64,000 nucleotides of DNA from positions 1,815-65,814 of the forward strand of contig JAZNII010000045.1 of assembly GCA_045577415.1 (NCBI GenBank), read 5' to 3'. A program made the position numbers and the translations under genes. The notes under the pieces were generated by a model. That model saw only the letters and a list, made by a program, of their open reading frames with translations. It was not told the origin of the DNA and searched no databases. This stretch comes from Eubacteriales bacterium (GTDB lineage: Bacteria; Bacillota; Clostridia; Oscillospirales; CAG-272). This document shows positions 48,289 through 64,000 of the stretch, in pieces. Position 1 is the first letter of the stretch; every line of letters starts with the position of its first letter.

Positions 48289-50871
48289 TTATTGCTGACT
48301 TTCGGTCAATTTTTTTATAAAAGCGGTGATCTCGTTGCCGACGCGCGTCAGCTCGTCGATAAATTCCTGCGCAGTCATACGCAAAATGCCCGAATGAACG
48401 GCAGAGAATTGCAAAAGTCTGTCTCCCGTTACCATTCTGATGCTGTAATCTGGCCCCAAATCGTGCATTACCTTTTCAATATAAGCGTCGGCGGTCTGAT
48501 CTGCCTTGGTGTAGATTACCTTGTAGCCGTCCTTCGAAAATTCCGAACCCTCGCCGTCCTTGACGAGATAGGCATCAAAAACCAACAGAAGCTCCACCTT
48601 GGTGTATGCCACGTAGCTTGAAAGGACATCCATAAGCTCCTCTCGCGCCTTTTCAAGGCTGAAATCGGCGGTCTTCTTGAGATCATCCCAAGAATATATC
48701 AGATTGTAGCCGTCGATTATCACCATGTTTCGCTGAGGCTTCAGATTTTTGACCCTCGGCGGCTTTTCGCTCTTAGGCGCGGAGATGCTTTTGGGTTCCT
48801 TGTACTGTCTGCGCTTGACGGGACCGAATTCGCGGAGCATTATCGCTTCAAGCTCCTCGTCGCTGATGTGATATTTTCTCGCAAGAGAAGCAGCTCTCGG
48901 AATAACGGTCTCGCCTTTGTCCGAAAGGGAAATCCCTGGATCAAGGTGCTTATAGTCGTCCACCTCTCTCCAGTTGACCACAAATCCCGCGCCGTGGTCG
49001 CAGAACACCGAATGAGGTGTGTTTTCAAGGTCGCTTTCGGGATCGTAAGCAGCATTTTGTGCTATTTCCTCGGCATTGTGACAGGGCTCATATCCGTCGC
49101 TGACGCAGGAAAGCCTGCCCTCGCCGCGAGTGTATGAAATGACCTCGCGAGTGTAGTCGTGAAGCGTTGAAACCGGCGCTCTGCCCACGATTACCGTGAG
49201 ATTTTCGTCGGAGGACTCGATCTCAAATTCCGCGCTCCTCGCTTGCAGGTCGGACATAGCTCTGCCCACTTGATTTTGCGGTATCTCAAGACGGAATTTA
49301 TAATATGGCTCAAGGAGAGTGCAGCCACCCTTCATAAGTCCGTGACGCACCGCGCGCAATGTCGCTTCGCGGAAATCGCCGCCCTCGGTGTGCTTGAGAT
49401 GAGCCTTGCCCGCCACGAGAGTGATCTTTGTGTCGGTCAAGATCGCGCCGATCTGGGTGCCTCGGTGATCTTTTTCGTAAAGGTGCGAGAGAATAAGCCT
49501 TTGCCAATTTAGGTCAAGAGCGTTTTCGGGGAGTTTTGTGTCAAAGATAAGTCCGCTTCCTTTAGGCTGAGGCTCAAGGAGAAGCTGAACCTCGGCGTAG
49601 TGGCGCAGAGGCTCAAAATGTCCTACTCCAATCGCCTTTTTCGCTATCTTTTCTTTGTATAGAATTCTGCCCGCATCAAGGGTGCAATCGATAGAAAATC
49701 TTTCGAAAATAAGCCTTTTTATAAGGTCTATCTGTATCTCTCCCATAAGCCTTGCCTCGATCTCGGCAAGCTCCTCGTTCCATGAAAGATGCAAGGACGG
49801 TTCTTCCTCCTCAAGCTCCTTGAGCTTTGGAAAATACAGCATCGGGTCGAATCCCTCGGGGAGATTTATTCGATAAGAGAGGACAGGCTCCAGCATAGGC
49901 TTCTCACCGTCGCTTTCAACACCGAGTCCAAGCCCCGCAAAAGTAGCAGATAGTCCTAAAACGGCGCAGATCTCGCCTGCGGACACTTTTTCGGTCTGCT
50001 CAAATTTTTCACCCGAATAAAGCCTTATCTGACTGACCTTTTCTGCGTGTTTTTTGCCCTCGCAAACGTAGGTCAGCTCGTCGCGCGCAGACAGAGAACC
50101 GCCCGTGATCTTCATATATGTCAGTCTCGTACCGCCCGCGCGAGAAATTTTGAACACCCTTGCGCCGAATCTTTCGCTATCGTAGACGGGGGATAGAGAG
50201 TATTTGTCGATCGTGTCAAGGAGAAAGCCGATGCCCGTCATGCGGAGCGCCGAGCCGAAAAGACAAGGGAACAGGCGGCGAGATACGATCAATTCGGCAA
50301 TATCGACGTCATCGATCTCTCTACCCGCGAGAAAATCTTCTAAAAAGTCCTCGTTGACCATAGCAAGCTTTTCGTCAAGCTCGCTCTTGCTTTGCTTTTC
50401 GTGAAATCCGACGCAGAGAGGGGAAAGAGTCTTTGAAAGCTCGGCTTCCATATCCTCGGCAAGCTTGATCGACACGTCGGTCTTATTGACGAAAACAAAG
50501 GTCGGTACACCGTATATTTCAAGCAGCTGCCAAAGGGTTCTGGTGTGATTTTGCACTCCGTCGGGAGCGCTGACAACCAAAATTGCGTAGTCAAGCAGGG
50601 AGAGAACTCGCTCTGCCTCGGCAGAAAAATCTACGTGACCGGGGGTGTCAAGGAGGATAAAATCGCAGTTTTCGCTTGAAAAACGAGCCTGCTTTGAAAA
50701 AATAGTGATTCCGCGCTCACGCTCGACCGCATTTGTGTCAAGATAGGTATTTTTATGGTCAACGCGCCCAAGAGTTCGTATTCTGCCCGAAATATAGAGC
50801 AGAGCCTCGGAGAGCGTAGTCTTGCCCGCGTCAACGTGAGCTAAAATTCCGATAGTAAGCTTCTTTTTCAT
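48289..50871 (-). CDS. TetM/EF-G-like translational GTPase fused to a C-terminal YacP/Rae1-like NYN domain
   Basis: 860 aa in one frame. G1 AHVDAGKTT, G2 RGITI, G3 DTPGH, G4 NKTD, then EF-G-like domains II-V to about aa 640. A K/P-rich linker follows, then VIIDGYNLI..LLVFDAY..KADQTADAYIE..VTGDRLL, matching the YacP/Rae1 layout. Confidence 0.85.
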   Translation of the reverse strand: MKKKLTIGILAHVDAGKTTLSEALLYISGRIRTLGRVDHKNTYLDTNAVERERGITIFSKQARFSSENCDFILLDTPGHVDFSAEAERVLSLLDYAILVVSAPDGVQNHTRTLWQLLEIYGVPTFVFVNKTDVSIKLAEDMEAELSKTLSPLCVGFHEKQSKSELDEKLAMVNEDFLEDFLAGREIDDVDIAELIVSRRLFPCLFGSALRMTGIGFLLDTIDKYSLSPVYDSERFGARVFKISRAGGTRLTYMKITGGSLSARDELTYVCEGKKHAEKVSQIRLYSGEKFEQTEKVSAGEICAVLGLSATFAGLGLGVESDGEKPMLEPVLSYRINLPEGFDPMLYFPKLKELEEEEPSLHLSWNEELAEIEARLMGEIQIDLIKRLIFERFSIDCTLDAGRILYKEKIAKKAIGVGHFEPLRHYAEVQLLLEPQPKGSGLIFDTKLPENALDLNWQRLILSHLYEKDHRGTQIGAILTDTKITLVAGKAHLKHTEGGDFREATLRAVRHGLMKGGCTLLEPYYKFRLEIPQNQVGRAMSDLQARSAEFEIESSDENLTVIVGRAPVSTLHDYTREVISYTRGEGRLSCVSDGYEPCHNAEEIAQNAAYDPESDLENTPHSVFCDHGAGFVVNWREVDDYKHLDPGISLSDKGETVIPRAASLARKYHISDEELEAIMLREFGPVKRRQYKEPKSISAPKSEKPPRVKNLKPQRNMVIIDGYNLIYSWDDLKKTADFSLEKAREELMDVLSSYVAYTKVELLLVFDAYLVKDGEGSEFSKDGYKVIYTKADQTADAYIEKVMHDLGPDYSIRMVTGDRLLQFSAVHSGILRMTAQEFIDELTRVGNEITAFIKKLTESQQ

Positions 50872-50945
50872 GCTATTCCTCCTTTCGTTTTAATCAAATG
50901 CGCCCTGCCATAGCGCAGGGCGCGTTGGAATATGTGGCGGAGACG

Positions 50946-52532
50946 TTATTCTCCTTGAGAAGCGCCTGCAAGGGCCTTTTCCACGGCAGCTACAAGCTCC
51001 TCGTGTTTGATGGATCCTGTGAATTTATCGGTTATCACACCCTCGCCGTTGATCACGACGGTAGTGGGGCAGGCTTGGATGTCAAAAAGATCTTGACATT
51101 TCATGCCATCGTCCCAACAGATAAGCATAGTGCCGTCGTTCCATTCGCGATGTCCCGACGAGCTATCGATCCAAGCAGTGGCATCAACGCCCGGCATCTC
51201 GATATGTAGCGCCAAAACCGTCACGCTTTCGCCGTATTCGCTTGCCACGTCGTAAAAGTGCGGAAGCTCCTCAACGCAAGGACCGCAGGTGGTGTACCAG
51301 AAGTTGAGAACCACTACCTTGCCACTATTAGCTTCAAGGTCGAATTTTTCACCGCTTGAAAGTATTGTGGGAGATATATCGGGGCAGAGATTGCCGACAG
51401 AGGTTCCGACGGGCGGTTTGACGTTTTCGCCTTCCGAGCCGCTTTCGCTCTCTGTCTGCTCGGTTTCATCGCTTGGGAAGAAAGCATTAAGATCCATGCC
51501 GTCAAATGCGTTGAAATATAAGAGAACACCCGAAAGAAGCGCAATCATGACCGCTGCCGTCACCGCAGTTTTTACGGTGTTTTCGGCACGCTTTTTCTTG
51601 TTTCTTTCTTCAATTATAGCTTTTTCTTCCTCGGTCGCCTTGGGAGATATAGCCTCCATGGGAGAGTTTATGACGAATTTAGGTCCTTTCATGATTATAG
51701 CGCCCGTAGGACACGCGCTGATACATTCGCCGCAGGAAATGCACTCGTGGTCGCCAACGCGCTTTATGTCCATCTTGCACTTGCCCACGCATATTCCACA
51801 GTCGATGCAGGATTTTTTGTCAAGCTTCACTCCGATAAGAGCAAACTTGTTGAAAAAGCCGTAAATAGCTCCCAACGGGCAGATAAAGCGGCAGAACATA
51901 CGGAATATGAAAACGCACGCCACAAGGAATGACACCATGAGCAAAAATTTCCAAGTAAAGAGCGGGCCTAACATACGCAGATAGCTTTCGTTGACCGCGT
52001 TTGACAGAAGTCCCATAGCGCCCTCAAGTGTTCCCGCGGGGCATATATATTTGCAAAATCCGGGGAGAGGGAAGCTTCTGAATGCGTAAGCCAAGGGAAC
52101 TATTCCTACGAAAAAGGCAAGGACAACGTACTTGAAATAAGAGAGAACTCGTGTGAGCTTGCCCTTTTTGAGCTTAGGAGTGGGGATCTTATGTAAAAGC
52201 TCTTGAATAAGTCCGAATGGGCAGAGAAATCCGCATATCCAACGTCCGAACAGAACTCCGTAGAGCATGATGATACCGAATACGTAATAGGGTACGGTCT
52301 TGTTGCTCGAAGACAACGCGTTTTGTAAAGCTCCCAGAGGACAAGCGCCCGACGCTCCGGGGCAGGAGTAGCAGTTAAGACCGGGGGTGCAAATGTTTTT
52401 TAAGGGTCCCGTATAGATCTGACCCGTAAAAAATCCCTTTATGTTCGCGTTGAAAAGCAGAGCGGCGTAGAGCTGAATAAGCCTTCTTTTGGTGGGAAGG
52501 CGTTTTTTTATCCAATTAAATACTTTTTTCAT
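50946..52532 (-). CDS. NapH/MauN-like membrane polyferredoxin fused to a C-terminal TlpA-like thioredoxin-fold domain
   Basis: CxxCP/CP motifs (CYSCPGASGACPLG, CPFGLIQE, CPAGTLEG, CPLGAIYG), 2x[4Fe-4S] (CIDCGICVGKC, CISCGECISACP), an extra TM helix, then VVLNFWYTTCGPC (CGPC at 51276-51287). Confidence 0.8.
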   Translation of the reverse strand: MKKVFNWIKKRLPTKRRLIQLYAALLFNANIKGFFTGQIYTGPLKNICTPGLNCYSCPGASGACPLGALQNALSSSNKTVPYYVFGIIMLYGVLFGRWICGFLCPFGLIQELLHKIPTPKLKKGKLTRVLSYFKYVVLAFFVGIVPLAYAFRSFPLPGFCKYICPAGTLEGAMGLLSNAVNESYLRMLGPLFTWKFLLMVSFLVACVFIFRMFCRFICPLGAIYGFFNKFALIGVKLDKKSCIDCGICVGKCKMDIKRVGDHECISCGECISACPTGAIIMKGPKFVINSPMEAISPKATEEEKAIIEERNKKKRAENTVKTAVTAAVMIALLSGVLLYFNAFDGMDLNAFFPSDETEQTESESGSEGENVKPPVGTSVGNLCPDISPTILSSGEKFDLEANSGKVVVLNFWYTTCGPCVEELPHFYDVASEYGESVTVLALHIEMPGVDATAWIDSSSGHREWNDGTMLICWDDGMKCQDLFDIQACPTTVVINGEGVITDKFTGSIKHEELVAAVEKALAGASQGE

Positions 52533-52547
52533 ATAAAACACCGCCTA

Positions 52548-53339
52548 TCAACCAAGTCCGATGCACTCGGTACATATATTTATCGCCTTTGAAAGAACAT
52601 CTGCCATGCCGCCGTTGAATATTCCCAAAATGATGAAAATAACCGCTACGGCAATAACGATCACCCTTGTGGAAAGGATCGAATATCTTTCCTTTCTGCA
52701 CTTGCACTCCGAGCATCCGTTCTTTTCGAGCTTTTCCGCTTTTCCTTCGGCAATAAGAGCCTTGATCGTCTTTATCTGCTTGTTGAGCAGAAGATTTTCA
52801 ACGTAGACGTAAGCCGAAGCAATAAGCGCGCAGGCAAGGAAACAGGGAATTATCAGATAGCAAAGGTTAATTATGCTTTGGTTGTAATCTGCGGTATAGC
52901 TTGCGGGAAGGCATACGACGATCAGCGCGGGAAGTGACAAAAGAGCGCATAAAGTACAAGCCGCCGCCTTCAGAACGAGACAAAGTGTTTTTGCCTTTTT
53001 GACGGGTGCCACGTCCTCTTTTTCGCAAGCCGAGAGATCATATTTTGATATAAGTCGGTCAAGAGTAACGCGAGGGTCGAGCTTTGATTTAAAGGAATTT
53101 TCGTCAAGAGGCATAAATATTTTAATACAACCGCCCACAGCAACCGCGCCTACGGCAACGTACAGAATTATCTGAATTTTTTCAAACGCCGCCGAGATAG
53201 AGTCGGGCGTGAAAGGGCGATTGCCAAGCTGGTAGATGTTATAGCAGGACACTATCAGTAAAATACCAGATACGATAAGCAGTACCGAGAGCAGTATCCC
53301 GTATATCAGATATACGATTTTTTTCGTCTTATTTGACAT
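52548..53339 (-). CDS. polytopic membrane protein ending in CxxC motifs (C-terminus resembles the CD1871A-type CxxC family)
   Basis: 263 aa with about 6 TM helices. CSECKC, then a final TM helix and ...KAINICTECIGLG at the C-terminus. The family resemblance is from memory only. Confidence 0.55.
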   Translation of the reverse strand: MSNKTKKIVYLIYGILLSVLLIVSGILLIVSCYNIYQLGNRPFTPDSISAAFEKIQIILYVAVGAVAVGGCIKIFMPLDENSFKSKLDPRVTLDRLISKYDLSACEKEDVAPVKKAKTLCLVLKAAACTLCALLSLPALIVVCLPASYTADYNQSIINLCYLIIPCFLACALIASAYVYVENLLLNKQIKTIKALIAEGKAEKLEKNGCSECKCRKERYSILSTRVIVIAVAVIFIILGIFNGGMADVLSKAINICTECIGLG

Positions 53340-53383
53340 TTGACATATCCTTTCAATAGGTATAACAATATAAATCCACTTTA

Positions 53384-53412
53384 ATTATAATATACTTTTT
53401 TGTAAAAATCAA
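53384..53412 (-). promoter_or_regulatory. promoter of the 263-aa / polyferredoxin gene pair
   Basis: Minus strand: TTGATT (53407-53412), 17 nt, TATAAT (53384-53389). Confidence 0.55.
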
Positions 53413-53465
53413 GTCGTTTCCGCACTGTTTGTGAAAAAAATGCACTTTTTTGCATAAAAGACGCT

Positions 53466-53499
53466 AAAAAATGCTACCGCCGCGGCGGGAGCATTTTTG
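53466..53499 (-). terminator. intrinsic terminator after the 149-aa lipoprotein gene
   Basis: Minus strand: AAAAATGCTCCCGCC gcg GCGGTAGCATTTTTT. Confidence 0.7.
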
Positions 53500-53534
53500 G
53501 GTCGTTTAATTTTTGCTTAAAGATCAAAACAGAA

Positions 53535-53984
53535 TTATTCTGCGTCCTTCGTGAGAGTTATCGTCAGCTCGCCGGAACCCTCGGGGAAGCTGTAATACTC
53601 CTCGCCTGTGTAGCCCTCGAGAGTTGCCTTGACCGTATACTCCGCTTCGTCAAACTCAAAGATAGCTACGCCCTCGGCGTCAGTAGGAGAGGGAAGCTTG
53701 CATATATCACCGACACAAAGCTGAACGAATACACCTGCAAGGGCATTGCCCTCATTGTCTACAACGGTTACCTTGTAGGTTACCTTTGTGTTTTCGGGAG
53801 CAGTGCTATCGGTCTCCTCTGTGTCATTTGACGCTTCGGTTTCGGAAGAAGTTTCTTTTTCTGATGATTCCTCGCTTGAAGATTCACCGCTGTTATCCGT
53901 GACGGGAGTAAAATCGCAGGAGCAAGCAAGCAACAGAACCGCGAGAAGCATACAGAAGAATGTGAGAATTCTGGACTTTATCAT
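53535..53984 (-). CDS. small lipoprotein with a carboxypeptidase-regulatory-like (Ig-like beta-sandwich) domain
   Basis: Lipobox LLACS, S/E-rich linker, then KVTVVDNEGNALAGVFVQL...DAEGVAIFEF..YTVKA. Start at 53984 with GGAGG 5 nt upstream. Confidence 0.7.
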   Translation of the reverse strand: MIKSRILTFFCMLLAVLLLACSCDFTPVTDNSGESSSEESSEKETSSETEASNDTEETDSTAPENTKVTYKVTVVDNEGNALAGVFVQLCVGDICKLPSPTDAEGVAIFEFDEAEYTVKATLEGYTGEEYYSFPEGSGELTITLTKDAE

Positions 53985-54035
53985 ATTAACCTCCATTGTT
54001 AATTATTTTATTGATTTTGTAAGGATGTATTTGAC

Positions 54036-56012
54036 TTATTCGTAATATCCGCAGTAGAGCAACCAAGCGTATTCCTGATTATAGGGCGCGCCGAGAAGCA
54101 CTCTTGTGAATATATTGGTGTCTTCGTTATCGGACCACCAGCCGTTTTTGTCACCAAAGGCCTTTACCGCTTCGGCAAGCTTTTCGGTCAAAGGAACACG
54201 CACGGGATCCGTGGGAGCGGACGTTGTTTCTAAGGGATCCGGCATACCGCACTGCATGAAAAGCTCGTTGTAGCTTCGCTTTTCAACGACGTTGCCGTCG
54301 ATATCATAGATATACGCGCCCATTCTCTGGTGTGCGCAAATGGTGAAAATGCTTGCGATATATCGAGAATCTGTGGTAAGGTCTATAAAGATAACGGGAC
54401 CGTCCTTGCTGCCAAGGTGATAATATCCGTCATCGGAATTAAGCACCGCGGAGAGGGAGGTGTTGGTAACGTCGAATGTGACGTATGTTCCTTCCTGAGG
54501 ATAGTTTTTCATTTCCTCGACCTTATCTGCGTCCTCCTGATAAGGGGTCCAGGGCTGATCCCCAAGTCTTGTCCCCGGGTCTCCCGCATTTTGAATATTC
54601 AAAATACACTCGGTCGCGCTCTTCGACTTTATAGCAAAGACGTAAGACGCTCCGATATTAGTGGGATAAATACTAAAGGAAAGTCCGTTTCCGTATTTAG
54701 AGAAGTCGCTGTTATCCTTGGAAATATCATTGCCTTGAACGAAGAACGTGCCGCCGTGATAGCTGACGGTAAGATCGGAATCACACTCGTAGGTGATCGT
54801 GTATATAGCAGCGACCTCGGGAGTGAAAATGAAGAAGGAGTAATCGTTTGGGGTAAGGGAAACCTTATACGATCCCTCTGTGATGTATTGAGCGTTGTAG
54901 TCAGCGTCAATAGGAGAGGAAACGTATATCGGGTCGTCTGCTTCCTTCGCGGTGCGATAAAGCTTTATACTTAAAGATTTATGAGCTGTTGAGATCGCAC
55001 AGGATGACGCATCATATACGTATTCCTCCGAAAGCAGGGAAAGATCAAGCTCAACGGTATAATCGCCGTCCTCCAGATCGAATGTGGTATACTGACCGTT
55101 ATAGGATGACATTTTGACCACTTCGCCGTCCTTGAGAACCTTAACTATAATGTCGGTCATAGGATTGCCAAGACCGTCGGTGATCCAGACACCGTAATTG
55201 CCCTTGAATCCGCAGGAAGTGCAAACTCCGCCCATGAAGGAGTGACCCTTGGGAGCGATGGGCAGCTGAGACGCGGTGATGGTTCCGCATACAGAGCATT
55301 TCTTGCCGTCGGTAGTACCTGCTTCGTCACAGGTAGGCGCCTTGCCGAGAATAGTTTCTTCTGTGTGGTTGTTAGTTTTTGCTATTGCTTGAGTATCAAT
55401 AGTTTCACCGCACTCGCAAATAAGAGAGATCACTCCTGTTTCTACGCACGTTGCAGGTTTTGTTACTGTCCAAGAGGAAGCGGAATGGACGTGATCGACG
55501 CTGATTGTAGGAATAGCTTCGGTGAGAAGAACCAGTTTACAACGGGTACACTCCTTATGCTTTTTTCCTTCTGTTTCGGTGGTCGCGGTGAAATCTATCA
55601 TCCAGTCGCTCTCTGAATGTCCAAGGGCAGAGATTATATCTTGTGATATGATCACAGCGTCGCAAACAGAGCATTTTTTGCCCTGCGTGAGACCTTCCTC
55701 GGAGCAGGTTGCCGCACGTCCCTCGATAATCTCCTCGGTGTGGGCCAGCATTTCGACATCCTCGGTTTCAAGGATCTCGCCGCATGTGATACATTCCTTG
55801 TGCTTTGAGCCTTTTGATGAGCAGGTCGCGTCGGCATCAACGATCCAATCGCTTGCCTGATGCTCGTCGCATTCGGCAGATGAGCTTTCGTCGGTGTCTC
55901 TGCTTGTCTCCAAGGGAGTCGAAGAAAAGAAATCACAGGAGACCGCGAAAAGGGTCATAACCGAAACTATACATATAGCAAACGCTATTTTCGCATATTT
56001 GTTGATATTCAT
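54036..56012 (-). CDS. Cys-rich lipoprotein with ~41-aa His+3Cys repeats, an Ig-like domain and a C-terminal DGYYH...CGYY module
   Basis: Lipobox FAVSC. Five and a half repeats (H..ATCxxxG..KxCxxC). GVWITDGLGNPM..DGDYTVEL beta-sandwich. The C-terminal module is shared with the 960-aa neighbour. Confidence 0.75.
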   Translation of the reverse strand: MNINKYAKIAFAICIVSVMTLFAVSCDFFSSTPLETSRDTDESSSAECDEHQASDWIVDADATCSSKGSKHKECITCGEILETEDVEMLAHTEEIIEGRAATCSEEGLTQGKKCSVCDAVIISQDIISALGHSESDWMIDFTATTETEGKKHKECTRCKLVLLTEAIPTISVDHVHSASSWTVTKPATCVETGVISLICECGETIDTQAIAKTNNHTEETILGKAPTCDEAGTTDGKKCSVCGTITASQLPIAPKGHSFMGGVCTSCGFKGNYGVWITDGLGNPMTDIIVKVLKDGEVVKMSSYNGQYTTFDLEDGDYTVELDLSLLSEEYVYDASSCAISTAHKSLSIKLYRTAKEADDPIYVSSPIDADYNAQYITEGSYKVSLTPNDYSFFIFTPEVAAIYTITYECDSDLTVSYHGGTFFVQGNDISKDNSDFSKYGNGLSFSIYPTNIGASYVFAIKSKSATECILNIQNAGDPGTRLGDQPWTPYQEDADKVEEMKNYPQEGTYVTFDVTNTSLSAVLNSDDGYYHLGSKDGPVIFIDLTTDSRYIASIFTICAHQRMGAYIYDIDGNVVEKRSYNELFMQCGMPDPLETTSAPTDPVRVPLTEKLAEAVKAFGDKNGWWSDNEDTNIFTRVLLGAPYNQEYAWLLYCGYYE

Positions 56013-56090
56013 ATTTTTCCTCCATAAATGCGGAAAACTGTATTTGTGGGGTGTCGCACACGCGACAACCCCATTTTTGAGTAATAAATC

Positions 56091-58973
56091 TTAGGGTGCG
56101 GGAGTAATGTTGGTACTGCCGAGATGTCTGTAATAATAGCAAAGCTTAGTCCAGGAATTAGTTACTCCCTTGAAGGAATATTTGTCCATAAGCTGTTGGA
56201 GCAGAGAAGCAAGCTCTGCGTCAACGGGAACGCAACCTTCAAGCTCAGGTGCTTCGTCGGTCTTGGGAAGCATCTTTTCAAGGTAAGCTGAGATCTCGTC
56301 GGTGAGATCCTCTCCGCCGCCGTGATATTTGCCGGCAAGAACCTCCTCAAGCTGATATATCTGCTCCCATTCAGCGTAGGAGTCGCCCCAGAGCTTCTCA
56401 TAATATTCGAGACAAGCATCCTTGTCTCCGCCGAACTCCTTAAGCTTTGCAAGAACCATCTGGTCGGTTTCATTGACCGAAAAATCAAAGCCTCCGAGCT
56501 TGATCATCTCTTCGATAGAATGAGAGAACATACCCGTTGAGGTAGAGAAGTCGGCGTAAACGACAGAGCCGAGAGTTCCGTCCTCGCGAAGCTCGTGATA
56601 AAAGCCGTCCTCTCCAAGCTTAACGTTGATACCGCCCGCGACGGTCTCGTTGATCTGCCCGCCCGTGCTTTCGTGAAAAGTAAAATATCCGGGGGATGCA
56701 AGATGGAAATGCTCGTAGCTTTCGCCAATGTAGGAAACCGTAAACGTAAATGTTCCTACAGCGTAGATGTCGTAATAAGCGATGTCGATATAATAGGTCT
56801 CGCCCGCCTCCATATATTCTACCATAGAGACGTTGACAGTGTCGAGAGTAAGGTTGCCGTAAGGACGGTCAACTATCGCTGCTGTGTGTATGCACTCATA
56901 GTTGCTGTTGAAGATCCAACCGTCAACGGGGTCATCGCTCTGGGATCTGATGAAATATACACCCGACTTTTCGGGAACGAACTTGTATTTAAGTCCGCGA
57001 GGCATTATAACTCTGCCGTCGTAGGTTACGGTGTTGAATTTTTCCTCGGTCTCGGTGGAGAGTACCGTGTCAAACGCCGCGAAGAATGCAATGCCCTTGA
57101 CGGGATCCTCAAGCTGCTTGTCGGTGCCGTAAGCATCGTAGTAGGAGCAAGCCTGAAGCCACTGGTTGGGATTGTTCTTTTCCAATCCAACTATGTCGGC
57201 AGCCGCTTCAAGTATCTGCTTCAGCTCCTCGGTAACGGGGGAGAAGCCGTAAAGAGTACCGTTTATAGAGTGGTTACAATAGTTAACAAGAGTTTCATAG
57301 AGATTAACGCCGTCCGAGACCAGCTTGCCGTCGTATCCGAGCTGATTAAGAGACTCGGCGCTGAGCTGAGTTTCCGCCATCAGGTTGACGAGAAGGAGGG
57401 GACCGTTAGCGTTGCCTACATGGTAGTAGCCGTCTTTTTCATTGAATACAGGAGTAATATACTGCTGATAGCCAAGTCCGTTAGCGTTGGGCTTGGTAGC
57501 CGCCTGACGGGGAATATATGTGGGGGCGTTTACCTCGCTTGCCGAAACCTTGCGGAAATTGCGGAGATATACGGTGTCATCGCCGGTATCGGTCGAGTCG
57601 TCCTTAAGATATATGAAAGAAACTGTGTATTCGCCGTCCTCCGTAGCAACGTAGGGGAAGCAGGTAGTCCAGTCCTCGCTGACACCCGAAAGTCTGTAAA
57701 TATCCTTTTCGTTAACAAGGATATAGAGGATGTCAACGCCGATCTCGGACTCCGCGAACCAATCGATAGCAAGAGCCTCACCCGCTCTCAGGCTAACTGT
57801 CGCGTGGAGAGTTGCAAAAGAAGCATCCTTGTATTTGTTGGCGGGATATACGCAAGCCGTGCCATTCTTCTCGCCGATTATGAAGGGCCAAGAATATTCA
57901 GCGTCGTCAGCCTCGGTTTCGGGATAATACGTTGCGGTAAAGCCTGCGCCGTTAAGGACTGCGCCTATCTCCTCGGAGGAGGGCATCTCAACGTCGGGCT
58001 TTTCTGTGGGAGTAAGCTCCTCAATGGAGGTGATGAGCTTCTGCTGATAGTTTTCTGCGGAGAAATGCTCAAATGCCGCAACGAAAGGTTTTTCGCTGGT
58101 AAGACCGCCTATCTCGATAAGACAAATAGTGCCGTAACGGTCAACGAATATAGACGTAGGATAGCCCTGAAGATTGAAAGCTGAACCCAGTCTGGAATAG
58201 TCCTTTGCCACGGGGAAGGTAAGACCCATGGTAGCCTTGAAATCTCTGACGGTTACGTCGTTGTCGCCTGCATAGTTGTTGAGAGCTATGACCTCAATCT
58301 CGTCGCTGAATTTCTCATAAGCGCTTTGCATATAAGGAAATTCGTTGATACAGGGAGAGCAGGTGGAGTACCAGAAATTGATAAGCACGCCCTTCTTGGT
58401 CTTAAGTGCCTCGGAGAGGGTAAACGTGCTTCCGTCGGTAGTGGTAACGGTGAAATCACGGATGATGTCGCCAAGCTCGTACTGAACGCCCGTAAGGTCG
58501 GAATCCATAATTACAGAGGAGGAGAGAACTATATCCAAGGCTTTGCCTTCAAAGGAGTAGCTATCCTCAACTATATATCCTTCCAGATCGTCTTCTGAAA
58601 GCTTGACTACATAGCCGTCGGCAGGCTTGAGAGAAATCTTTCCCATACCCTCATCGTCGGTCTTGCCGTACGAGATCAAGTCATCTCCAAGATATATGTA
58701 GAAATTAAGCTTGGACATGGGGCGACCGCCGATAGATCTGATGCTGACGGTATATTCTACCTTGCCGTCATTGTTTGTCTCGCCGCTTTGAGTATCGCTC
58801 TCGTCCTCCGAAGATTCGGAGTCAAGGGTGTCGGTCGTTTCCGATGAGGTCTCACCGCCGAATATGCCACTAAACATAGCGCCTATGTTGCATCCCGTAA
58901 AGGAGATGGCAACAGCGCCGAGAGAGATAAGCATAGCCAGCGTGATAGCAATTTTTTTCAGGTTTTTTCTCAT
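56091..58973 (-). CDS. large lipoprotein with a carboxypeptidase-regulatory-like domain, a TlpA-like thioredoxin domain (CSPC) and two copies of an unknown DG[YF]YH...CxYY module
   Basis: Lipobox FTGC. VEYTVSIRS..DDEGMGKISL. GVLINFWYSTCSPC (58350-58361) ..GYPTSIFVDRYG. DGYYH (aa 514) ..WLQACSYY, and DGFYH (aa 789) ..WTKLCYYY. Confidence 0.8.
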   Translation of the reverse strand: MRKNLKKIAITLAMLISLGAVAISFTGCNIGAMFSGIFGGETSSETTDTLDSESSEDESDTQSGETNNDGKVEYTVSIRSIGGRPMSKLNFYIYLGDDLISYGKTDDEGMGKISLKPADGYVVKLSEDDLEGYIVEDSYSFEGKALDIVLSSSVIMDSDLTGVQYELGDIIRDFTVTTTDGSTFTLSEALKTKKGVLINFWYSTCSPCINEFPYMQSAYEKFSDEIEVIALNNYAGDNDVTVRDFKATMGLTFPVAKDYSRLGSAFNLQGYPTSIFVDRYGTICLIEIGGLTSEKPFVAAFEHFSAENYQQKLITSIEELTPTEKPDVEMPSSEEIGAVLNGAGFTATYYPETEADDAEYSWPFIIGEKNGTACVYPANKYKDASFATLHATVSLRAGEALAIDWFAESEIGVDILYILVNEKDIYRLSGVSEDWTTCFPYVATEDGEYTVSFIYLKDDSTDTGDDTVYLRNFRKVSASEVNAPTYIPRQAATKPNANGLGYQQYITPVFNEKDGYYHVGNANGPLLLVNLMAETQLSAESLNQLGYDGKLVSDGVNLYETLVNYCNHSINGTLYGFSPVTEELKQILEAAADIVGLEKNNPNQWLQACSYYDAYGTDKQLEDPVKGIAFFAAFDTVLSTETEEKFNTVTYDGRVIMPRGLKYKFVPEKSGVYFIRSQSDDPVDGWIFNSNYECIHTAAIVDRPYGNLTLDTVNVSMVEYMEAGETYYIDIAYYDIYAVGTFTFTVSYIGESYEHFHLASPGYFTFHESTGGQINETVAGGINVKLGEDGFYHELREDGTLGSVVYADFSTSTGMFSHSIEEMIKLGGFDFSVNETDQMVLAKLKEFGGDKDACLEYYEKLWGDSYAEWEQIYQLEEVLAGKYHGGGEDLTDEISAYLEKMLPKTDEAPELEGCVPVDAELASLLQQLMDKYSFKGVTNSWTKLCYYYRHLGSTNITPAP

Positions 58974-59117: not shown

Positions 59118-59146
59118 TTGAAATTGTTATGAACATATGATATAAT
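59118..59146 (+). promoter_or_regulatory. promoter of the S8 peptidase gene
   Basis: TTGAAA (59118-59123), 17 nt, extended -10 TGaTATAAT (59138-59146). It is bracketed by the 8-bp inverted repeat AAGCACTT (59112-59119) / AAGTGCTT (59150-59157). Confidence 0.6.
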
Positions 59147-59227: not shown

Positions 59228-62200
59228 ATGGCAAAAAGAAAAACACTGATGAAATGGGGAAGCGTTGCCACCGTTTCGATACTTATTCTGGCTATCGCCG
59301 TATCGGTATTGGTCAACTTTGGCGGAAGCCCCTCGGACGAGGTATCCTCTATCATCAACACAAGCGACCGAAACATCAATAAGAATCTTGGTCAGTTTAT
59401 CGACAGCTCGGTAATGTATAAGCTCCCCGATACTGTCAAGGAAACCGACGACATATCGGTCATCATTCAGACTAAAAAGGACTCGCTTCTCGACGCGTAC
59501 GACAAGGCGGACACCGAGCTTTCTTTCTCGCAGTTCGTGTTCTCGGACGACGCAAAGGCGGTCACCGACAATATCATCAAAGAAAAGGACATCATAACCG
59601 ATGCTTTTGACGAGCAAGGCTTTGATTACACTCTCGGAGCAGACTATAAGGCTATCTTCGGCGGCTTTGAGGTAATTATCAAGGCAGGAGATTTCGAGCA
59701 TCTCTGCAACGCTCTCGGCGACAGAGCTACGGCTATCGTGGGCGACGAATACAAGCCCTGCGAGACACAGCTTGTTGAGAATAAGGTAAATGTTTATGAA
59801 ACGGGTATCTTCAACAGTTCCTCCTTCGGCTATGACGGCACGGGAATGGTCGTTGCGGTCCTCGATACGGGTCTCGACTACAACCATACCGCGTTTTCGG
59901 TAAATAACTTTACCGCGGACAGAAACAAGCTCGGTATGACGTACGCCGACGTCGAAAGCTTTATTTCCGACACCAAGGCAAGCAAGCTCCATTCGGGACT
60001 TACCGCGGCGGACGTATATCTGAACGAAAAGGTACCCTTTGCCTTTGACTACGCGGACTACGATCCCGACGTTTACCCCATGACACCTCAGGCAAGTGAA
60101 CACGGAACTCACGTTGCGGGCGTTATCGCGGGTAAGGACGATGTTATAACGGGTGTCGCTCCCAACGCCCAGCTTGCAATAATGAAGATATTCTCCGACG
60201 TTGTCTCCACCGCGAGAACCTCATGGATACTCAGCGCGCTTGAGGACTGCGTTATCCTTGAAGTAGACGTTATCAATATGTCCATTGGTACAAGCTGCGG
60301 ATTCAGCAGAGAAATGGACAAGGAGGCTATCTCGGGTGTTTACGACCGCATCCGTGAGACGGGAATCAGTATGGTCGTTGCGGCATCCAATAGCTTCAAT
60401 TCGACCTACGGCTCGGAGAAGAACGGTAATCTCGGTCTGACCTCCAACCCCGACAGCGCAACGGTAGGCTCTCCTTCCACCTACGAGGGCGCTATGTCGG
60501 TAGCATCCATCAGCGGAGTAAAGACCCCTTACATACTCTACGACGGCAAGATCATTTACTTTACCGAATCCACCGACCGCGTTGCCGAGGAGAAGAATTT
60601 CTACGACGATATTCTTCCCGAGGGAGTCGATTCGATGGAGATCGAATATGTCACCATTCCCGGCGCGGGACGTTCTGCCGATTACAGCGGACTTGACGTT
60701 ACGGGCAAGATCGTGCTTGTGCGCCGCGGAGCTACGACCTTTGAAGAAAAGGCAAACGTAGCGCAGAGCAAGGGTGCAGCAGGCATTATCATCTATAATA
60801 ATGTGTCGGGTGACATCAAGATGAATGTCGGCGACGCTACGCTTGGCGTCTGCTCGATCGGTCAGGACGACGGTGAGATGCTTGCGGCGGCAGGAAGCGG
60901 AAAGATCACCCTCAGCCGCACTCAGACCTCAGGTCCCTTTATGTCCGACTTCTCGTCCTGGGGACCCACTCCCGACCTTGGCATCAAGCCCGAGATCACC
61001 GCTCACGGCGGTATGATCTATTCGGCAGTTCCCGGACAGAGCTATGACCGTCAGTCGGGTACGTCTATGGCATGCCCCAATATCGCGGGTGTGACCGCGC
61101 TTATCCGTCAGTACGTGGTGCAGAATTTCCCCGAGATCGCAAACGATCCCGTAAAGGTAACGGCTCTGGTCAATCAGCTCATGATGTCCACCGCCGACAT
61201 AGTTTATAACGTAAACGGTCTGCCCTATGCCGTAAGAAAGCAGGGAGCAGGTCTTGCGAATCTTGACAACATTGGAAACACAAAAGCTTACATCATCACC
61301 TACAGAGACGGTGAGGAGATGGACAAGACAAAGATCGAGCTTGGCGACGATCCCACAAAGAGCGGTGTCTACACTCTTACCTTCTCGGTCAAGAACTTTG
61401 GAAATGCGGCTCTCTCTTACGATGTATCGGCATACGTTATGACCGAGGGTGTCAGCGACACCAAGACCAATCAGGGTGAGACCACCGTTGACGAGCTTGG
61501 ATATATCCTCGACGGTGCAAACGTGGCTATCACCTCTTACAGCAACGCAACCGTAAACGGTATGAACCTGACCGTTGGCGCAGGTCAGACCGCCGACGTA
61601 ACCGTAACCATCACTCTCTCCGACTCCGATAAGCAGTACCTTGACGACTTCTTCGAGAACGGTATGTACGTTGAGGGCTTCGTGGTTCTTGACGCGGCAG
61701 AGGAGAGCGTTGTGGACCTCAGCGTTCCTTATCTCGCGTTCTACGGCGATTGGACACGCGCGCCTCTCTTTGACCTTGATTATTTCGCAACCAACAAGGA
61801 CGAGCTTGACGACTCCATCGACCTTCTCGACAAGACTCTTCCCGATGCATATGCAACCAGACCTATCGGTAGCGTTCAGAGCGACTACGTAAGCTACCTC
61901 GGCTCATTCTATTTCGTGCAGGATCCCGCAACCAAGCAGATCAGTGCCGACAGAAAGTATGTCTCTCTCTCCAATCAAGAGGGTTCGGTCCACGAACTGA
62001 GTAATGTCTGGGCGGGACTTCTCCGAAATGCGTCCAAGATAGTCGTAACTATCACCGACGCATCTACGGGCGAGGTCGTATTTGAAAAGGTGGACGAGGA
62101 TGTCCGCAAATCCTACGGCGACGGCGGCTCGATCTATCCCGCAGACGTAAAGATAGGATTTGACGCCTACGAGCATAATCTTAAAAATAATACCCAATAT

Positions 62201-64000
62201 AACGTAAAGCTTCAAGGCTACCTCGATTACGGTGACGGAGGACTTGAAACCAACCTCAATAATACTTTCGAATTTCCCCTTGTAACCGACTTTGAAGCGC
62301 CCGCGGTCACTGACTGCGAGTTCTACACCGAATATGACCGTACTGCTGAAAAGACCCGTCTTTTCGCAAAGATCGCGGTATACGATAACCATTATTCCAT
62401 GGCTTTGCAGGTGGGTTACGTCAAGCAGGACACCGACGGATATATGCTGGAGACCTTCGATCAGTACCTTACTCCCGTATATTCCGAGGCTAACTCCACC
62501 TCCTACGTCGTTTACGAGCTTACAGATTACGTTGACGACATCAGACGTGGCGCTGTCAATAAGAACAGCTTCACCGTTGCGACGTACGACTACGCGCTCA
62601 ACACGGCTACCTACGAGATAGCTCTCCCCGATGATTTCGAGGCGTTCTATTTTGAGGAGGAGAGTCTGACTCTGAGTCCTAATCAGGTCTATACTCTCAC
62701 TCCTAAATCATATCCCGATACCCAGTGGACCGAGCTGCTCACCTATATCTCCACAAACGAAAAGGTTGCTCACATCGTTAATAATAAGGTGGTCACGGTA
62801 GCTCCCGGTCAGACGGTTATTATCGCGAGAGATCCCGTTACCAATCAGCAAACGACCTTTGAGCTGACGGTTCTCGGCGAAGGCGACGAGGGCTACGTAA
62901 GATACGATAAGCCCGTCACAGACAACTTCGTGCTTACGGGATATAAGACCAATAAAGCCTACTACTTCCTGTCAAGCGACGAGCGAGACATCGGAAGCAC
63001 GGGCGACGAGATGAAGTTTGTCGGCAACGGATATTCGATGGAGATGTTCCCGTCGGAGTCTGTCACTCTCCGTTATAAGCTTGACGCATATTTCCCGAAT
63101 GACACAGAGGTGGTCGCCGTATCCAGTAACGACAACCTCGTGCAGGTTGAAAAGGTGAACGGAGAGTGGGTCATTACCGCGCTTGCAGAGGGATACGCGT
63201 CGGTATCGGTTGACGTATTACTTGACGGTAGCGGCACTTACTACTCTCAATCCATTGATATTGAAATAAAGGATCCCTACATAACCACAGGTCCCTCGCT
63301 TACCCATTATTTCGGTATGGGCGGCAGGGTAGAGATACCTGCGAGCTTGGCTATAACCGATATAGGTCAGTTTGCGTTCTCCAACTTTGACTACGTTGCA
63401 AAGGGACCCGGAGATGAGATAAGCGAGGATGATCCCACAACCACGAAGCAGTGGTTCCTTGGAGACGACACCATTGAGGAGGTAGTCATTCCCGAGGGAG
63501 TTAAGACCATCGGCTCTTACGCCTTCGCAAATCTTACCGCTCTTAAAAAGGTAGTTCTTCCTTCCACCCTTGAAAGAATAGATTTCGGAGCGTTCTACGG
63601 TTGTTCTGCGCTTACCGAGGTAGAGGGAATTGAAAAGGTTAAATTTATCAACCGCGGTGCCTTTGAGGGATGTTCCTTGAGGGGAACCGTTGAACTGACT
63701 AACGCGGTGGCTATCGCCGACAGAGCCTTTGCGGGCAACACCAAGCTTGACGGCGTGGTGCTTGGCAAGAACGTTCAGTCTGTGGGCGCGTACGCATTTG
63801 CGGGCAATATCGGTCTTGATAGCGTTAAGATCGAGGCGGAGATCATCAAGCTCGGTCAGTACGCATTCGACGGATGCGAATCCATTAAGGAGATAAGCAT
63901 CAACGCGGCGGTAATTCCTACGGCGGCGTTCAACGAGTGTAAGTCTCTTGAGATTATCACACTTGGCAAGGATGTCTCTGTCATCGGCGAGTACGCGTTC
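59228..64000 (+). CDS. cell-surface S8 (subtilisin/lactocepin/C5a-peptidase-like) serine peptidase with a PA domain, Ig-like domains and BspA-type leucine-rich repeats (3' end outside the window)
   Basis: My own translation of the open frame from the ATG at 59228 (RBS GGAAGGA). Signal anchor, catalytic D (VAVLDTGLD), H (HGTHVAG) and S (SGTSMACP), PA insert (VLVRRGATTFEEKA..AAGIIIYNN), and a late LRR pattern IPEGVKTIGSYAFANL..LPSTLERIDFGAFYGC. No stop codon before 64000. Confidence 0.88.
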   Translation, partial: MAKRKTLMKWGSVATVSILILAIAVSVLVNFGGSPSDEVSSIINTSDRNINKNLGQFIDSSVMYKLPDTVKETDDISVIIQTKKDSLLDAYDKADTELSFSQFVFSDDAKAVTDNIIKEKDIITDAFDEQGFDYTLGADYKAIFGGFEVIIKAGDFEHLCNALGDRATAIVGDEYKPCETQLVENKVNVYETGIFNSSSFGYDGTGMVVAVLDTGLDYNHTAFSVNNFTADRNKLGMTYADVESFISDTKASKLHSGLTAADVYLNEKVPFAFDYADYDPDVYPMTPQASEHGTHVAGVIAGKDDVITGVAPNAQLAIMKIFSDVVSTARTSWILSALEDCVILEVDVINMSIGTSCGFSREMDKEAISGVYDRIRETGISMVVAASNSFNSTYGSEKNGNLGLTSNPDSATVGSPSTYEGAMSVASISGVKTPYILYDGKIIYFTESTDRVAEEKNFYDDILPEGVDSMEIEYVTIPGAGRSADYSGLDVTGKIVLVRRGATTFEEKANVAQSKGAAGIIIYNNVSGDIKMNVGDATLGVCSIGQDDGEMLAAAGSGKITLSRTQTSGPFMSDFSSWGPTPDLGIKPEITAHGGMIYSAVPGQSYDRQSGTSMACPNIAGVTALIRQYVVQNFPEIANDPVKVTALVNQLMMSTADIVYNVNGLPYAVRKQGAGLANLDNIGNTKAYIITYRDGEEMDKTKIELGDDPTKSGVYTLTFSVKNFGNAALSYDVSAYVMTEGVSDTKTNQGETTVDELGYILDGANVAITSYSNATVNGMNLTVGAGQTADVTVTITLSDSDKQYLDDFFENGMYVEGFVVLDAAEESVVDLSVPYLAFYGDWTRAPLFDLDYFATNKDELDDSIDLLDKTLPDAYATRPIGSVQSDYVSYLGSFYFVQDPATKQISADRKYVSLSNQEGSVHELSNVWAGLLRNASKIVVTITDASTGEVVFEKVDEDVRKSYGDGGSIYPADVKIGFDAYEHNLKNNTQYNVKLQGYLDYGDGGLETNLNNTFEFPLVTDFEAPAVTDCEFYTEYDRTAEKTRLFAKIAVYDNHYSMALQVGYVKQDTDGYMLETFDQYLTPVYSEANSTSYVVYELTDYVDDIRRGAVNKNSFTVATYDYALNTATYEIALPDDFEAFYFEEESLTLSPNQVYTLTPKSYPDTQWTELLTYISTNEKVAHIVNNKVVTVAPGQTVIIARDPVTNQQTTFELTVLGEGDEGYVRYDKPVTDNFVLTGYKTNKAYYFLSSDERDIGSTGDEMKFVGNGYSMEMFPSESVTLRYKLDAYFPNDTEVVAVSSNDNLVQVEKVNGEWVITALAEGYASVSVDVLLDGSGTYYSQSIDIEIKDPYITTGPSLTHYFGMGGRVEIPASLAITDIGQFAFSNFDYVAKGPGDEISEDDPTTTKQWFLGDDTIEEVVIPEGVKTIGSYAFANLTALKKVVLPSTLERIDFGAFYGCSALTEVEGIEKVKFINRGAFEGCSLRGTVELTNAVAIADRAFAGNTKLDGVVLGKNVQSVGAYAFAGNIGLDSVKIEAEIIKLGQYAFDGCESIKEISINAAVIPTAAFNECKSLEIITLGKDVSVIGEYAF

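Follow-up and report, generated by a model that had tools for sequence, protein, structure and literature searches.

The reduction of exported thioredoxins is usually attributed to thiol relays of the DsbD/CcdA type. In the described systems, CcdA, DsbD or ScsB is the membrane protein, and ResA, StoA, TlpA, CcmG and Etrx1/2 are the clients. A likeness to these systems, in which a membrane protein would reduce extracytoplasmic CxxC domains, is proposed here for a locus of an uncultured Eubacteriales bacterium of the gut (Clostridia; Oscillospirales; CAG-272). The locus lies in a stretch of 64,000 nucleotides (contig JAZNII010000045.1, positions 1,815 to 65,814), which is termed the window below. 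It comprises a fusion of a NapH-like polyferredoxin to a thioredoxin, a membrane protein with a CxxC tail and three lipoproteins, all encoded on the minus strand between 50946 and 58973, and a divergently encoded S8 protease. On comparative sequence grounds, we consider it rather probable that these six genes form a surface island, in which an iron–sulfur (Fe-S) membrane module would feed surface thioredoxins that serve a giant-protease complex. Compared with the two-Cys thiol relay of CcdA/DsbD, the island would use an 18-Cys NapH-like protein of the Fe-S type and a CxxC micro-domain. Reductant delivery to exported thioredoxins is known; the membrane engine and the client set appear to be new.

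The closest described relatives of the membrane engine are the NapH proteins of E. coli and Wolinella, with which it has in common a four-transmembrane (TM) core, two cytoplasmic CX3CP motifs and two C-terminal ferredoxin-type clusters. NapH-like proteins have been proposed to act as modular transmembrane electron conduits (PMC8238504), and NapH-TM5-NapG fusions provide a precedent for a fifth TM helix that carries an external redox domain (PMC5449189). The NapH-like systems of Méheust et al. carry FMN-binding domains and not thioredoxins (PMC8238504). The external domain of the island protein is a thioredoxin, in contrast to the FMN-binding domain of NosR/PceC-type proteins and the Fe-S domain of NapH-NapG. 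The island protein further differs from NapH in that it scores below the NapH cut-offs, has six extra outward cysteines and an obligatory partner of the CD1871A family, and lacks NapG and NapA.

The fusion gene (50946-52541, minus strand) encodes 531 aa from a GTG codon; the ATG at 52532, which is probably the start, gives 528 aa. In Pfam, the protein matches Fer4_5 with 57.7 bits (cut-off 22) and Redoxin with 50.6 bits (cut-off 26.6), and 4Fe-4S motifs of the ferredoxin type are also assigned; it reaches 63.5 bits with the NapH model TIGR02163 (cut-off 213) and 42 bits with NF007013 (cut-off 234). The topology was derived from hydropathy, the positive-inside rule and the secondary structure of an AlphaFold2 (AF2) model with a predicted local distance difference test (pLDDT) score of 77. 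A cytoplasmic N-terminus rich in Lys and Arg is followed by the weakly hydrophobic TM1, an outward loop (52341-52391, minus strand) with the pattern C51-x5-C57-x2-C60-P-x5-C67-P, and TM2, which leads to cytoplasmic C103-x3-C107-P. A K-rich cytoplasmic loop, TM3 and a second outward loop (52041-52055, minus strand) with the third CX3CP motif (C163-x3-C167-P) come next, and TM4 leads to cytoplasmic C217-x3-C221-P. Two cytoplasmic CxxCxxCxxxCP ferredoxin motifs, TM5 and an acidic linker then connect this core to the thioredoxin domain outside (aa 382-518; 50988-51398, minus strand). All 18 cysteines of the NapH-like part and the CGPC pair are conserved without exception among 75 homologs of 45-90% identity, and the 18 are also kept in 31 of 31 class-wide homologs. 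Aligned with E. coli NapH, the fusion shares C103/C107, C217/C221 and the two ferredoxin motifs with it, and exactly the six outward cysteines are absent from the E. coli protein.

The thioredoxin domain of the fusion contains C419-G-P-C422, a ResA-type Glu425 and cis-Pro492, all of which are invariant, and the family consensus at the active site is WCGPC, the classical, strongly reducing thioredoxin motif. Its closest matches in the PDB are ResA, Etrx1/2 and StoA, and Foldseek superimposes the redoxin domains of the island on ResA with TM-scores of 0.85-0.92. The island redoxins thus have the fold, the CxxC motif, the cis-Pro and the acidic residue of the TlpA/ResA/CcmG family; their membership is at the family level, since they score below the cut-offs of the ResA, StoA and TlpA equivalog models. 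With the AF2 model of the whole fusion, the Foldseek matches listed from the PDB are thioredoxin-fold proteins only, and the NapH membrane core is unmatched among them. A profile of the fusion likewise finds thioredoxin-fold proteins in the PDB, together with soluble ferredoxin-type proteins over the ferredoxin domain. The initial annotation had placed the redoxin domains of the locus outside the cytoplasm, and the prediction is upheld by the positive-inside topology for the CGPC domain and by a lipobox for the 960-aa lipoprotein described below. The outward orientation of the CGPC domain is further supported by its stand-alone homologs in other Clostridia, which are lipoproteins.

Longer open reading frames (ORFs) of 667-816 aa for NapH-thioredoxin proteins occur in six relatives (L049, L050, L072, L080, L082 and L085); the one in L049 contains a second thioredoxin-like match, suggesting double-thioredoxin fusions. 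NapH-like matches with in-frame TGA or TAA codons were observed in three genomes from the window's order (G025:C69:756-1697, G150:C10:14127-14975 and G134:C6:29024-29983), where the match probably overruns the ORF end into the next gene.

The 5-TM protein (263 aa; 52548-53339, minus strand) is encoded directly upstream of the fusion gene, with a gap of 7-15 nt in the window. Its residues 227-263 (52551-52661, minus strand) match NF040920, the model of the CD1871A family of CXXC motif-containing proteins (43.1 bits, cut-off 32), and form a TM helix followed by the pattern ..V..KA...C256-x-E-C259-x-G-x-G. Pfam returned only noise on this protein at E values up to 10. The tail aligns with 28 small CD1871A members, which are 45-100 aa long and consist of an N-terminus rich in Lys and Arg, a single TM helix and the tail. 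By the positive-inside rule, the tail is predicted to face outward both in these small members and in the 263-aa protein. Compared with the small members, the 263-aa protein carries four additional TM helices ahead of the CD1871A module; this extension (aa 1-225 of the 52548-53339 gene, minus strand) is specific to the subfamily with fused NapH and conserves only Y36 and G39. Conservation in the 263-aa family is concentrated in the tail (G239, V248, K251, A252, C256, E258, C259, G261 and G263), with Y36 and G39 lying in the first outward loop, and the cytoplasmic CSECKC motif is not conserved. The outward CD1871A tail and the six outward cysteines of the NapH-like part together would place eight invariant cysteines on the outer face near the tethered CGPC domain.

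The neighbourhood was compared at 80 genome loci of the fused NapH gene, 37 of them with both flanks, with neighbours counted within 10 kb; genome-wide occurrence was followed in 151 genomes of the window's own order (the order sample) and in 300 Clostridia genomes (the class sample). The fused architecture is common (7988 matches), and Fer4_5 and Redoxin occur together in 120 of the 120 best. A homolog of the 263-aa protein is encoded directly upstream of the fused gene at 70 of 80 loci, and at 36 of the 37 with both flanks. In the class sample, the CD1871A model matches 57 of 300 genomes, usually once per genome. At 30 of 30 class-wide loci, a CD1871A gene of 45-100 aa is followed immediately by a gene for a NapH-like protein of about 300 aa (E = 1e-86 to 1e-104), and a gene for a TlpA-like lipoprotein directly adjoins the pair at 24 of them. 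Split, adjacent NapH and TlpA genes also occur within the window's order, in G034 and G061. These unfused sets indicate that the two membrane genes of the window are a fused form of a three-part set, in which peptide, polyferredoxin and thioredoxin are separate. The NapH-like/thioredoxin protein and the CxxC-tailed protein are therefore a conserved module by comparative evidence, as had been suggested from the single locus, in a genome free of CcdA and DsbD; the core is widespread in Clostridia and not particular to this locus. A literature search found no description of a CD1871A/NapH-like/thioredoxin module; the literature match obtained for CD1871 is an unrelated ABC permease and was set aside.

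The window's own genome, which is 95% complete, has no match to PF02683 (DsbD_TM) or PF13386 (DsbD_2), and a tblastn query with E. coli DsbD detects no DsbD membrane domain there. The initial remark that no CcdA or DsbD gene is visible can thus be extended from the window to the whole genome, in which no TlpA-like domain is exported other than the two redoxin domains of the island, members of the TlpA/ResA/CcmG family whose CcdA/DsbD partner has no match there. In the window's order, homologs of the same TlpA domain adjoin CcdA: all 20 genomes of the order sample in which a stand-alone TlpA is the best match contain CcdA, mostly adjacent to it. In the same sample, CcdA occurs in 0 of 4 genomes with the full fusion and in 1 of 13 NapH-type genomes. 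In the class sample, CcdA was found in 15 of 57 genomes with CD1871A compared with 121 of 243 without it (odds ratio 0.36, p = 0.0017, uncorrected for phylogeny). This pattern is what would be expected if the module replaced CcdA in the same role, with overlap and not strict exclusion.

By tblastn, neither MenA nor NapG was found in the window's genome; there are no nap genes in the neighbourhood, and Pfam detects no FMN_bind or ApbE domain in the five minus-strand proteins. The MenA test is a single query and weak; to that extent it speaks against quinol as the donor, and the organism probably has no quinone pool. The same result could be read in favour of electron flow in the reverse direction, in which the module would be a quinone-free anaerobic analogue of DsbB/VKOR that passes electrons from exported thiols to cytoplasmic Fe-S acceptors and thereby forms surface disulfides. 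No known disulfide-forming enzyme was found in the organism, and Fe-S chains are reversible in principle. However, the WCGPC consensus, the ResA/TlpA reductase signature with its conserved Glu in both redoxin domains, and the pairing of the relatives' homologs with CcdA, a reductant importer, all point to reduction, and we regard the reverse direction as highly improbable.

Besides the module, the island would comprise three lipoproteins, each of which has a signal peptide and a lipobox-like Cys. The 960-aa lipoprotein (56091-58973, minus strand) contains, in an AF2 model with a pLDDT of 85, an immunoglobulin (Ig)-like domain (aa 72-152), a CSPC thioredoxin, a β-sandwich, a first module termed DGYYH here, another β-sandwich and a second DGYYH module. 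Its Redoxin/AhpC-TSA match covers residues 168-290 (Redoxin 54.9 bits, cut-off 26.6), and the ResA-like thioredoxin (58089-58472, minus strand) has C205/C208, a ResA-type E211 and cis-Pro P272, all invariant. ResA and Etrx1/2 are among the best structural matches of this thioredoxin, and Foldseek matches it together with the following β-sandwich to the C-terminal domains of DipZ from M. tuberculosis. A profile of the 960-aa protein finds thioredoxin-fold proteins and Ig-like adhesin domains in the PDB.

The DGYYH module is a mixed α/β module that occurs twice in the 960-aa protein (57120-57530 and 56115-56642, minus strand) and once in the 658-aa protein (54039-54500, minus strand). Its name comes from the motif DGYYH ... 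GP ... WL-x2-C-x-Y, in which D, H, GP, WL, C and Y are invariant. In a search of 1.84 billion representative proteins, the DGYYH profile retrieved 971 clusters. Thirty of 46 sampled DGYYH proteins contain a Redoxin domain, the only partner domains are Redoxin and Ig-like domains, and Pfam found a known enzyme domain in 0 of the 46. This composition bears on a role in surface antioxidant defence or repair, in which DGYYH would be a thiol enzyme recycled by the thioredoxins, as in pneumococcal CcdA-Etrx-MsrAB2 or neisserial PilB, shielding the surface of an oxygen-sensitive anaerobe. The combination of a TlpA-like domain with two modules of a single invariant Cys parallels the Trx-MsrA-MsrB fusions, and the Etrx1/Etrx2 matches and the frequency of Redoxin partners fit as well. 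DGYYH, however, resembles no Msr, peroxiredoxin or known enzyme, and the strict linkage to the protease would be left unexplained; we consider this role unlikely.

The small lipoprotein (53535-53996, minus strand; 153 aa, or 149 aa from an inner ATG) has only weak Ig-like matches in Pfam. Its Ig-like domain carries a hairpin, Q-x-C94-x4-C99, that is invariant in 21 of 21 orthologs. In five relatives, the same Cx4C Ig-like domain forms the C-terminus of secreted TlpA-like proteins (about 605 aa) whose genes lie next to the NapH gene, a fusion that ties the Cx4C domain to thioredoxin chemistry. These proteins (L052:7264-9090, L054:1571-3379, L062:5548-7380, L068:7285-9099 and L071:138-1994) consist of a TlpA-like domain with CSPC, CGPC or CNPC, a DipZ-like β-sandwich and the C-terminal QxC-x4-C Ig-like domain. 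The alternation of thioredoxin, Ig-like Cys pair and thioredoxin in the island recalls the order DsbD γ to α to DsbC/CcmG as an analogy only. Homology of the 153-aa lipoprotein with nDsbD was considered and rejected, because hhalign gives a probability of 0.7% against residues 1-150 of E. coli DsbD and Pfam detects no DsbD_N.

The 658-aa lipoprotein (54036-56012, minus strand) comprises repeats (aa 51-268), an Ig-like domain, a β-sandwich and its single DGYYH module. It has 23 Cys after the signal peptide and five CxxC motifs in repeats of about 41 aa; Pfam has no match to the protein, and the Cys-rich repeats give only noise at E values up to 10. The initial annotation had proposed that the system exists to maintain or mature Cys/His-rich surface proteins. 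In this explanation, the redox module would keep the 658-aa lipoprotein's Cys/His-rich repeats, and similar Cys-rich surface proteins, reduced or correctly folded, a role that is suggested by the Cys content and by the position of the gene between those of the thioredoxin and Ig-like lipoproteins. Yet 15 of 29 orthologs lack the CxxC repeats and have 5-12 Cys, with the remainder of the protein and its synteny preserved, and the conserved residues of the family lie outside the repeats. Accessory repeats that half of the orthologs lack cannot act as a conserved client, so that the proposal fails in its original form, and we regard Cys-rich proteins as improbable clients. The number of CxxC repeats (55209-55862, minus strand, in the window) varies from 0 to 11 among orthologs, and the repeats look like an expandable stalk, either zinc-ribbon-like or disulfide-knotted. 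Better candidates for clients are the invariant Cx4C of the small lipoprotein and the invariant Asp, His and Cys of the DGYYH module.

The sixth gene encodes the giant S8 cell-envelope protease (59228-64000, plus strand), which extends beyond the end of the window, as far as the equivalent of position 66608 (2459 aa; C45:61042-68422 in genome contig coordinates). Pfam detects Peptidase_S8 (5.9e-44), PA (9.6e-16), fn3_5 (1.3e-14) and LRR_5 (5.4e-53), the last reflecting many BspA-type leucine-rich repeats (LRRs). An S8 domain with an inserted PA domain and Fn3_5 is the architecture of cell-envelope proteases of the lactocepin/C5a-peptidase type. At its N-terminus the protein has a signal or anchor, and a hydrophobic TM anchor at the C-terminus precedes KKSKTKKR; neither an LPXTG nor an SLH anchor was found. 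In its catalytic domain, C341/C357 is the sole conserved Cys pair and is kept in 15-16 of 16 orthologs. The protease was also considered as a Cys-rich client, which is not supported by its 19 Cys and its one conserved pair in the catalytic domain.

The lipoproteins and the protease are tied to the module by position and by occurrence. A homolog of the 960-aa lipoprotein lies no more than 10 kb from the fused gene at 21 of 37 loci, of the 658-aa lipoprotein at 15, of the 153-aa lipoprotein at 15 and of the S8 protease at 18. The gene order follows at least four arrangements, among them same-strand, convergent and one with the protease divergent from the membrane pair, and independent metagenome contigs contain the island with unrelated outer flanks. 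In the order sample, the DGYYH module occurs in only three genomes (G000, G007 and G095); in the same three, an ortholog of the protease (about 2450 aa, 60-65% identity) is encoded beside the membrane pair, and they are three of the four full-fusion genomes, the fourth being 72% complete. Orthologs of the protease were found in this sample only in genomes with the fused NapH-thioredoxin gene, adjacent to the fusion. In the class sample, DGYYH occurs in four genomes; G291 and G365 have the full fusion beside CD1871A, and in G204 the contig ends at the expected position of the pair. The island parts co-occur across five GTDB families. The linkage thus survives rearrangements and the parts co-occur across genomes, so that both the synteny anticipated in the initial annotation, with the CxxC-tailed gene upstream at nearly all loci and the lipoproteins and protease linked, and its tentative link to the divergent protease are supported. 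Among the fusion genomes, 14 have no adjacent homolog of the 960-aa lipoprotein; nine of these carry one elsewhere and five have none. The dependence would then be one-sided: the set of lipoproteins and protease occurs almost only with the fused module, and the module can occur without the set.

The same data bear on the possibility that there is no coupling at all, with the NapH-like protein engaged in an unrelated respiratory or quinol process and the neighbourhood inherited by descent. All relatives found are metagenome-assembled genomes of gut or rumen Clostridia, and shared ancestry inflates the synteny counts. Against this stand the persistence of the linkage through the four or more rearrangements and unrelated flanks, the co-occurrence over several families, the fusions of NapH to thioredoxin and of thioredoxin to the Cx4C domain, and the lack of NapG, NapA, an FMN-binding domain or MenA. 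Of the explanations considered, this appears the least probable.

A more serious alternative is protease maturation. In lactococci, the PrtM lipoprotein is encoded divergently from the protease PrtP. By analogy, the lipoproteins and the redox module would fold or activate the S8 protease, for example through C341/C357. The island resembles PrtP/PrtM, and also the combination of a keratinolytic subtilisin with a disulfide reductase, in that an S8/PA/Fn3_5 protease is divergent from accessory lipoprotein genes; the strict co-occurrence and the conserved Cys pair are consistent with such a role. The accessories, however, are thioredoxin and DGYYH lipoproteins and not a PrsA-like foldase, no PrsA or peptidyl-prolyl isomerase domain is present, and the protease differs from PrtP in its length of about 2450 aa, its BspA-type LRRs and its C-terminal TM segment. 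Only one Cys pair is conserved in the catalytic domain, and three large lipoproteins with binding-type β-sandwiches seem excessive for a single maturation step. Maturation is therefore rather unlikely, although it is slightly the strongest of the rival explanations.

The preferred reading, a membrane module that feeds surface thioredoxins at a protease complex, can be described in three layers. Electron input would be provided by the CD1871A-tailed 5-TM protein and the NapH-like protein, with its two cytoplasmic [4Fe-4S] motifs, two CX3CP motifs on the cytoplasmic face and six invariant outward cysteines. The Fe-S domain would be loaded by a low-potential cytoplasmic donor, probably reduced ferredoxin, and electrons would cross the membrane via cysteine-bound cofactors. 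At the outer face, the eight-Cys site formed by six cysteines of the NapH-like protein and two of the CD1871A tail may reduce the tethered thioredoxin by chemistry like that of ferredoxin:thioredoxin reductase (FTR) or Hdr. The likeness to FTR and to HdrB/HdrD is an analogy in the proposed chemistry only, a disulfide beside a [4Fe-4S] cluster that reduces a thioredoxin CxxC; no relation in sequence or fold was found, and FTR and Hdr are soluble or face the cytoplasm. Both the passage of electrons through Fe-S clusters and its direction are inferred. In the external thiol relay, the tethered CGPC thioredoxin would reduce the CSPC pair of the 960-aa lipoprotein, possibly via the Cx4C Ig-like domain. 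As clients, the third layer would comprise the S8 protease, anchored in the membrane, and the DGYYH modules of the two larger lipoproteins (960 and 658 aa). The most likely final targets at the protease complex would be disulfides of the proteins being digested, and the invariant Cys of DGYYH is the second candidate. The module would thus do the job of CcdA/DsbD by a different chemistry and, in the present lineage, serve a protease-associated complex.

Several points weigh against this reading. We know of no assembly route for Fe-S clusters in outward loops that are inserted by Sec. The outward cysteines may instead form a thiol relay or an intramembrane site and not serve as Fe-S ligands, and the loop with C51-C60 has a pLDDT below 50 in the AF2 model. 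Known external Fe-S domains use the twin-arginine translocation system (PMC5449189), and no twin-arginine motif is found ahead of TM5 of the fusion. The anticorrelation with CcdA is partial, with 15 genomes containing both and with tests uncorrected for phylogeny. DGYYH has no Pfam match (noise up to E 10), no profile match in the PDB and none among the Foldseek matches listed from the PDB. The protease itself is not Cys-rich, with 19 Cys in 2459 aa, and the five of 14 fusion genomes without DGYYH lipoproteins imply that the membrane module has other clients too.

A bolder form of the proposal is that CD1871A and the 18-Cys NapH-like protein constitute a third class of transmembrane thiol-redox system, beside DsbD/CcdA and DsbB/VKOR, which powers a 'reductive proteolysis' at the surface. 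The thioredoxin lipoproteins, the Cx4C shuttle and the DGYYH domain would open disulfide-bonded proteins for the S8 protease; the idea that disulfide reduction aids extracellular proteolysis has a parallel in the keratinolytic pairs of subtilisin and disulfide reductase. We put this form forward tentatively and regard it as possible rather than probable. If the module acts as suggested, ferredoxin metabolism would be linked directly to envelope thiol chemistry in strict anaerobes, a new answer to a textbook problem. About one fifth of the sampled Clostridia genomes have a CD1871A/NapH-like/TlpA set, and most of those lack CcdA. The island suggests a physiological use, since it is tightly linked to a giant protease of the cell surface and to an uncharacterised family of domains that comprises about 970 sequence clusters. 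The protease link has a bearing on the ways in which abundant, uncultured Clostridia of the gut and rumen might break down dietary or host proteins rich in disulfides.

All five minus-strand ORFs were recovered in a six-frame ORF list at the coordinates of the initial annotation, in which they had been described as a five-gene cluster; the genes stand, and the boundary of the unit is redrawn to six genes so as to include the S8 protease. Two minus-strand transcription units are a reasonable prediction. A hairpin with a U-run that resembles an intrinsic terminator (53466-53499, minus strand) lies 3´ of the lipoprotein operon (-19.1 kcal/mol, z = -3.6; 0 of 200 shuffles fold as well), and a promoter-like site, TTGATT-17-TATAAT (53384-53412, minus strand), which is a consensus match only, precedes the two-gene membrane module. 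Both had been pointed out earlier and were found again, as predictions only. A consensus scan also detected a promoter-like site for the protease gene, TTGAAA-17-TATAAT with a TG element (59118-59146, plus strand).

Beyond the membrane module, an 860-aa ORF (48289-50871, minus strand) encodes an EF-G/TetM-like GTPase (GTP_EFTU, EFG_IV and EFG_C) with a YacP-type NYN nuclease domain. This gene was considered as a member of the island and rejected, as its synteny is kept only in the three closest relatives. Directly 3´ of the stop codon of the NapH-thioredoxin gene lies a strong GC-rich hairpin (50899-50923, minus strand) of 9 pairs, 8 of them G-C, with a moderately T-rich tail, which is likely the terminator of the two-gene unit.

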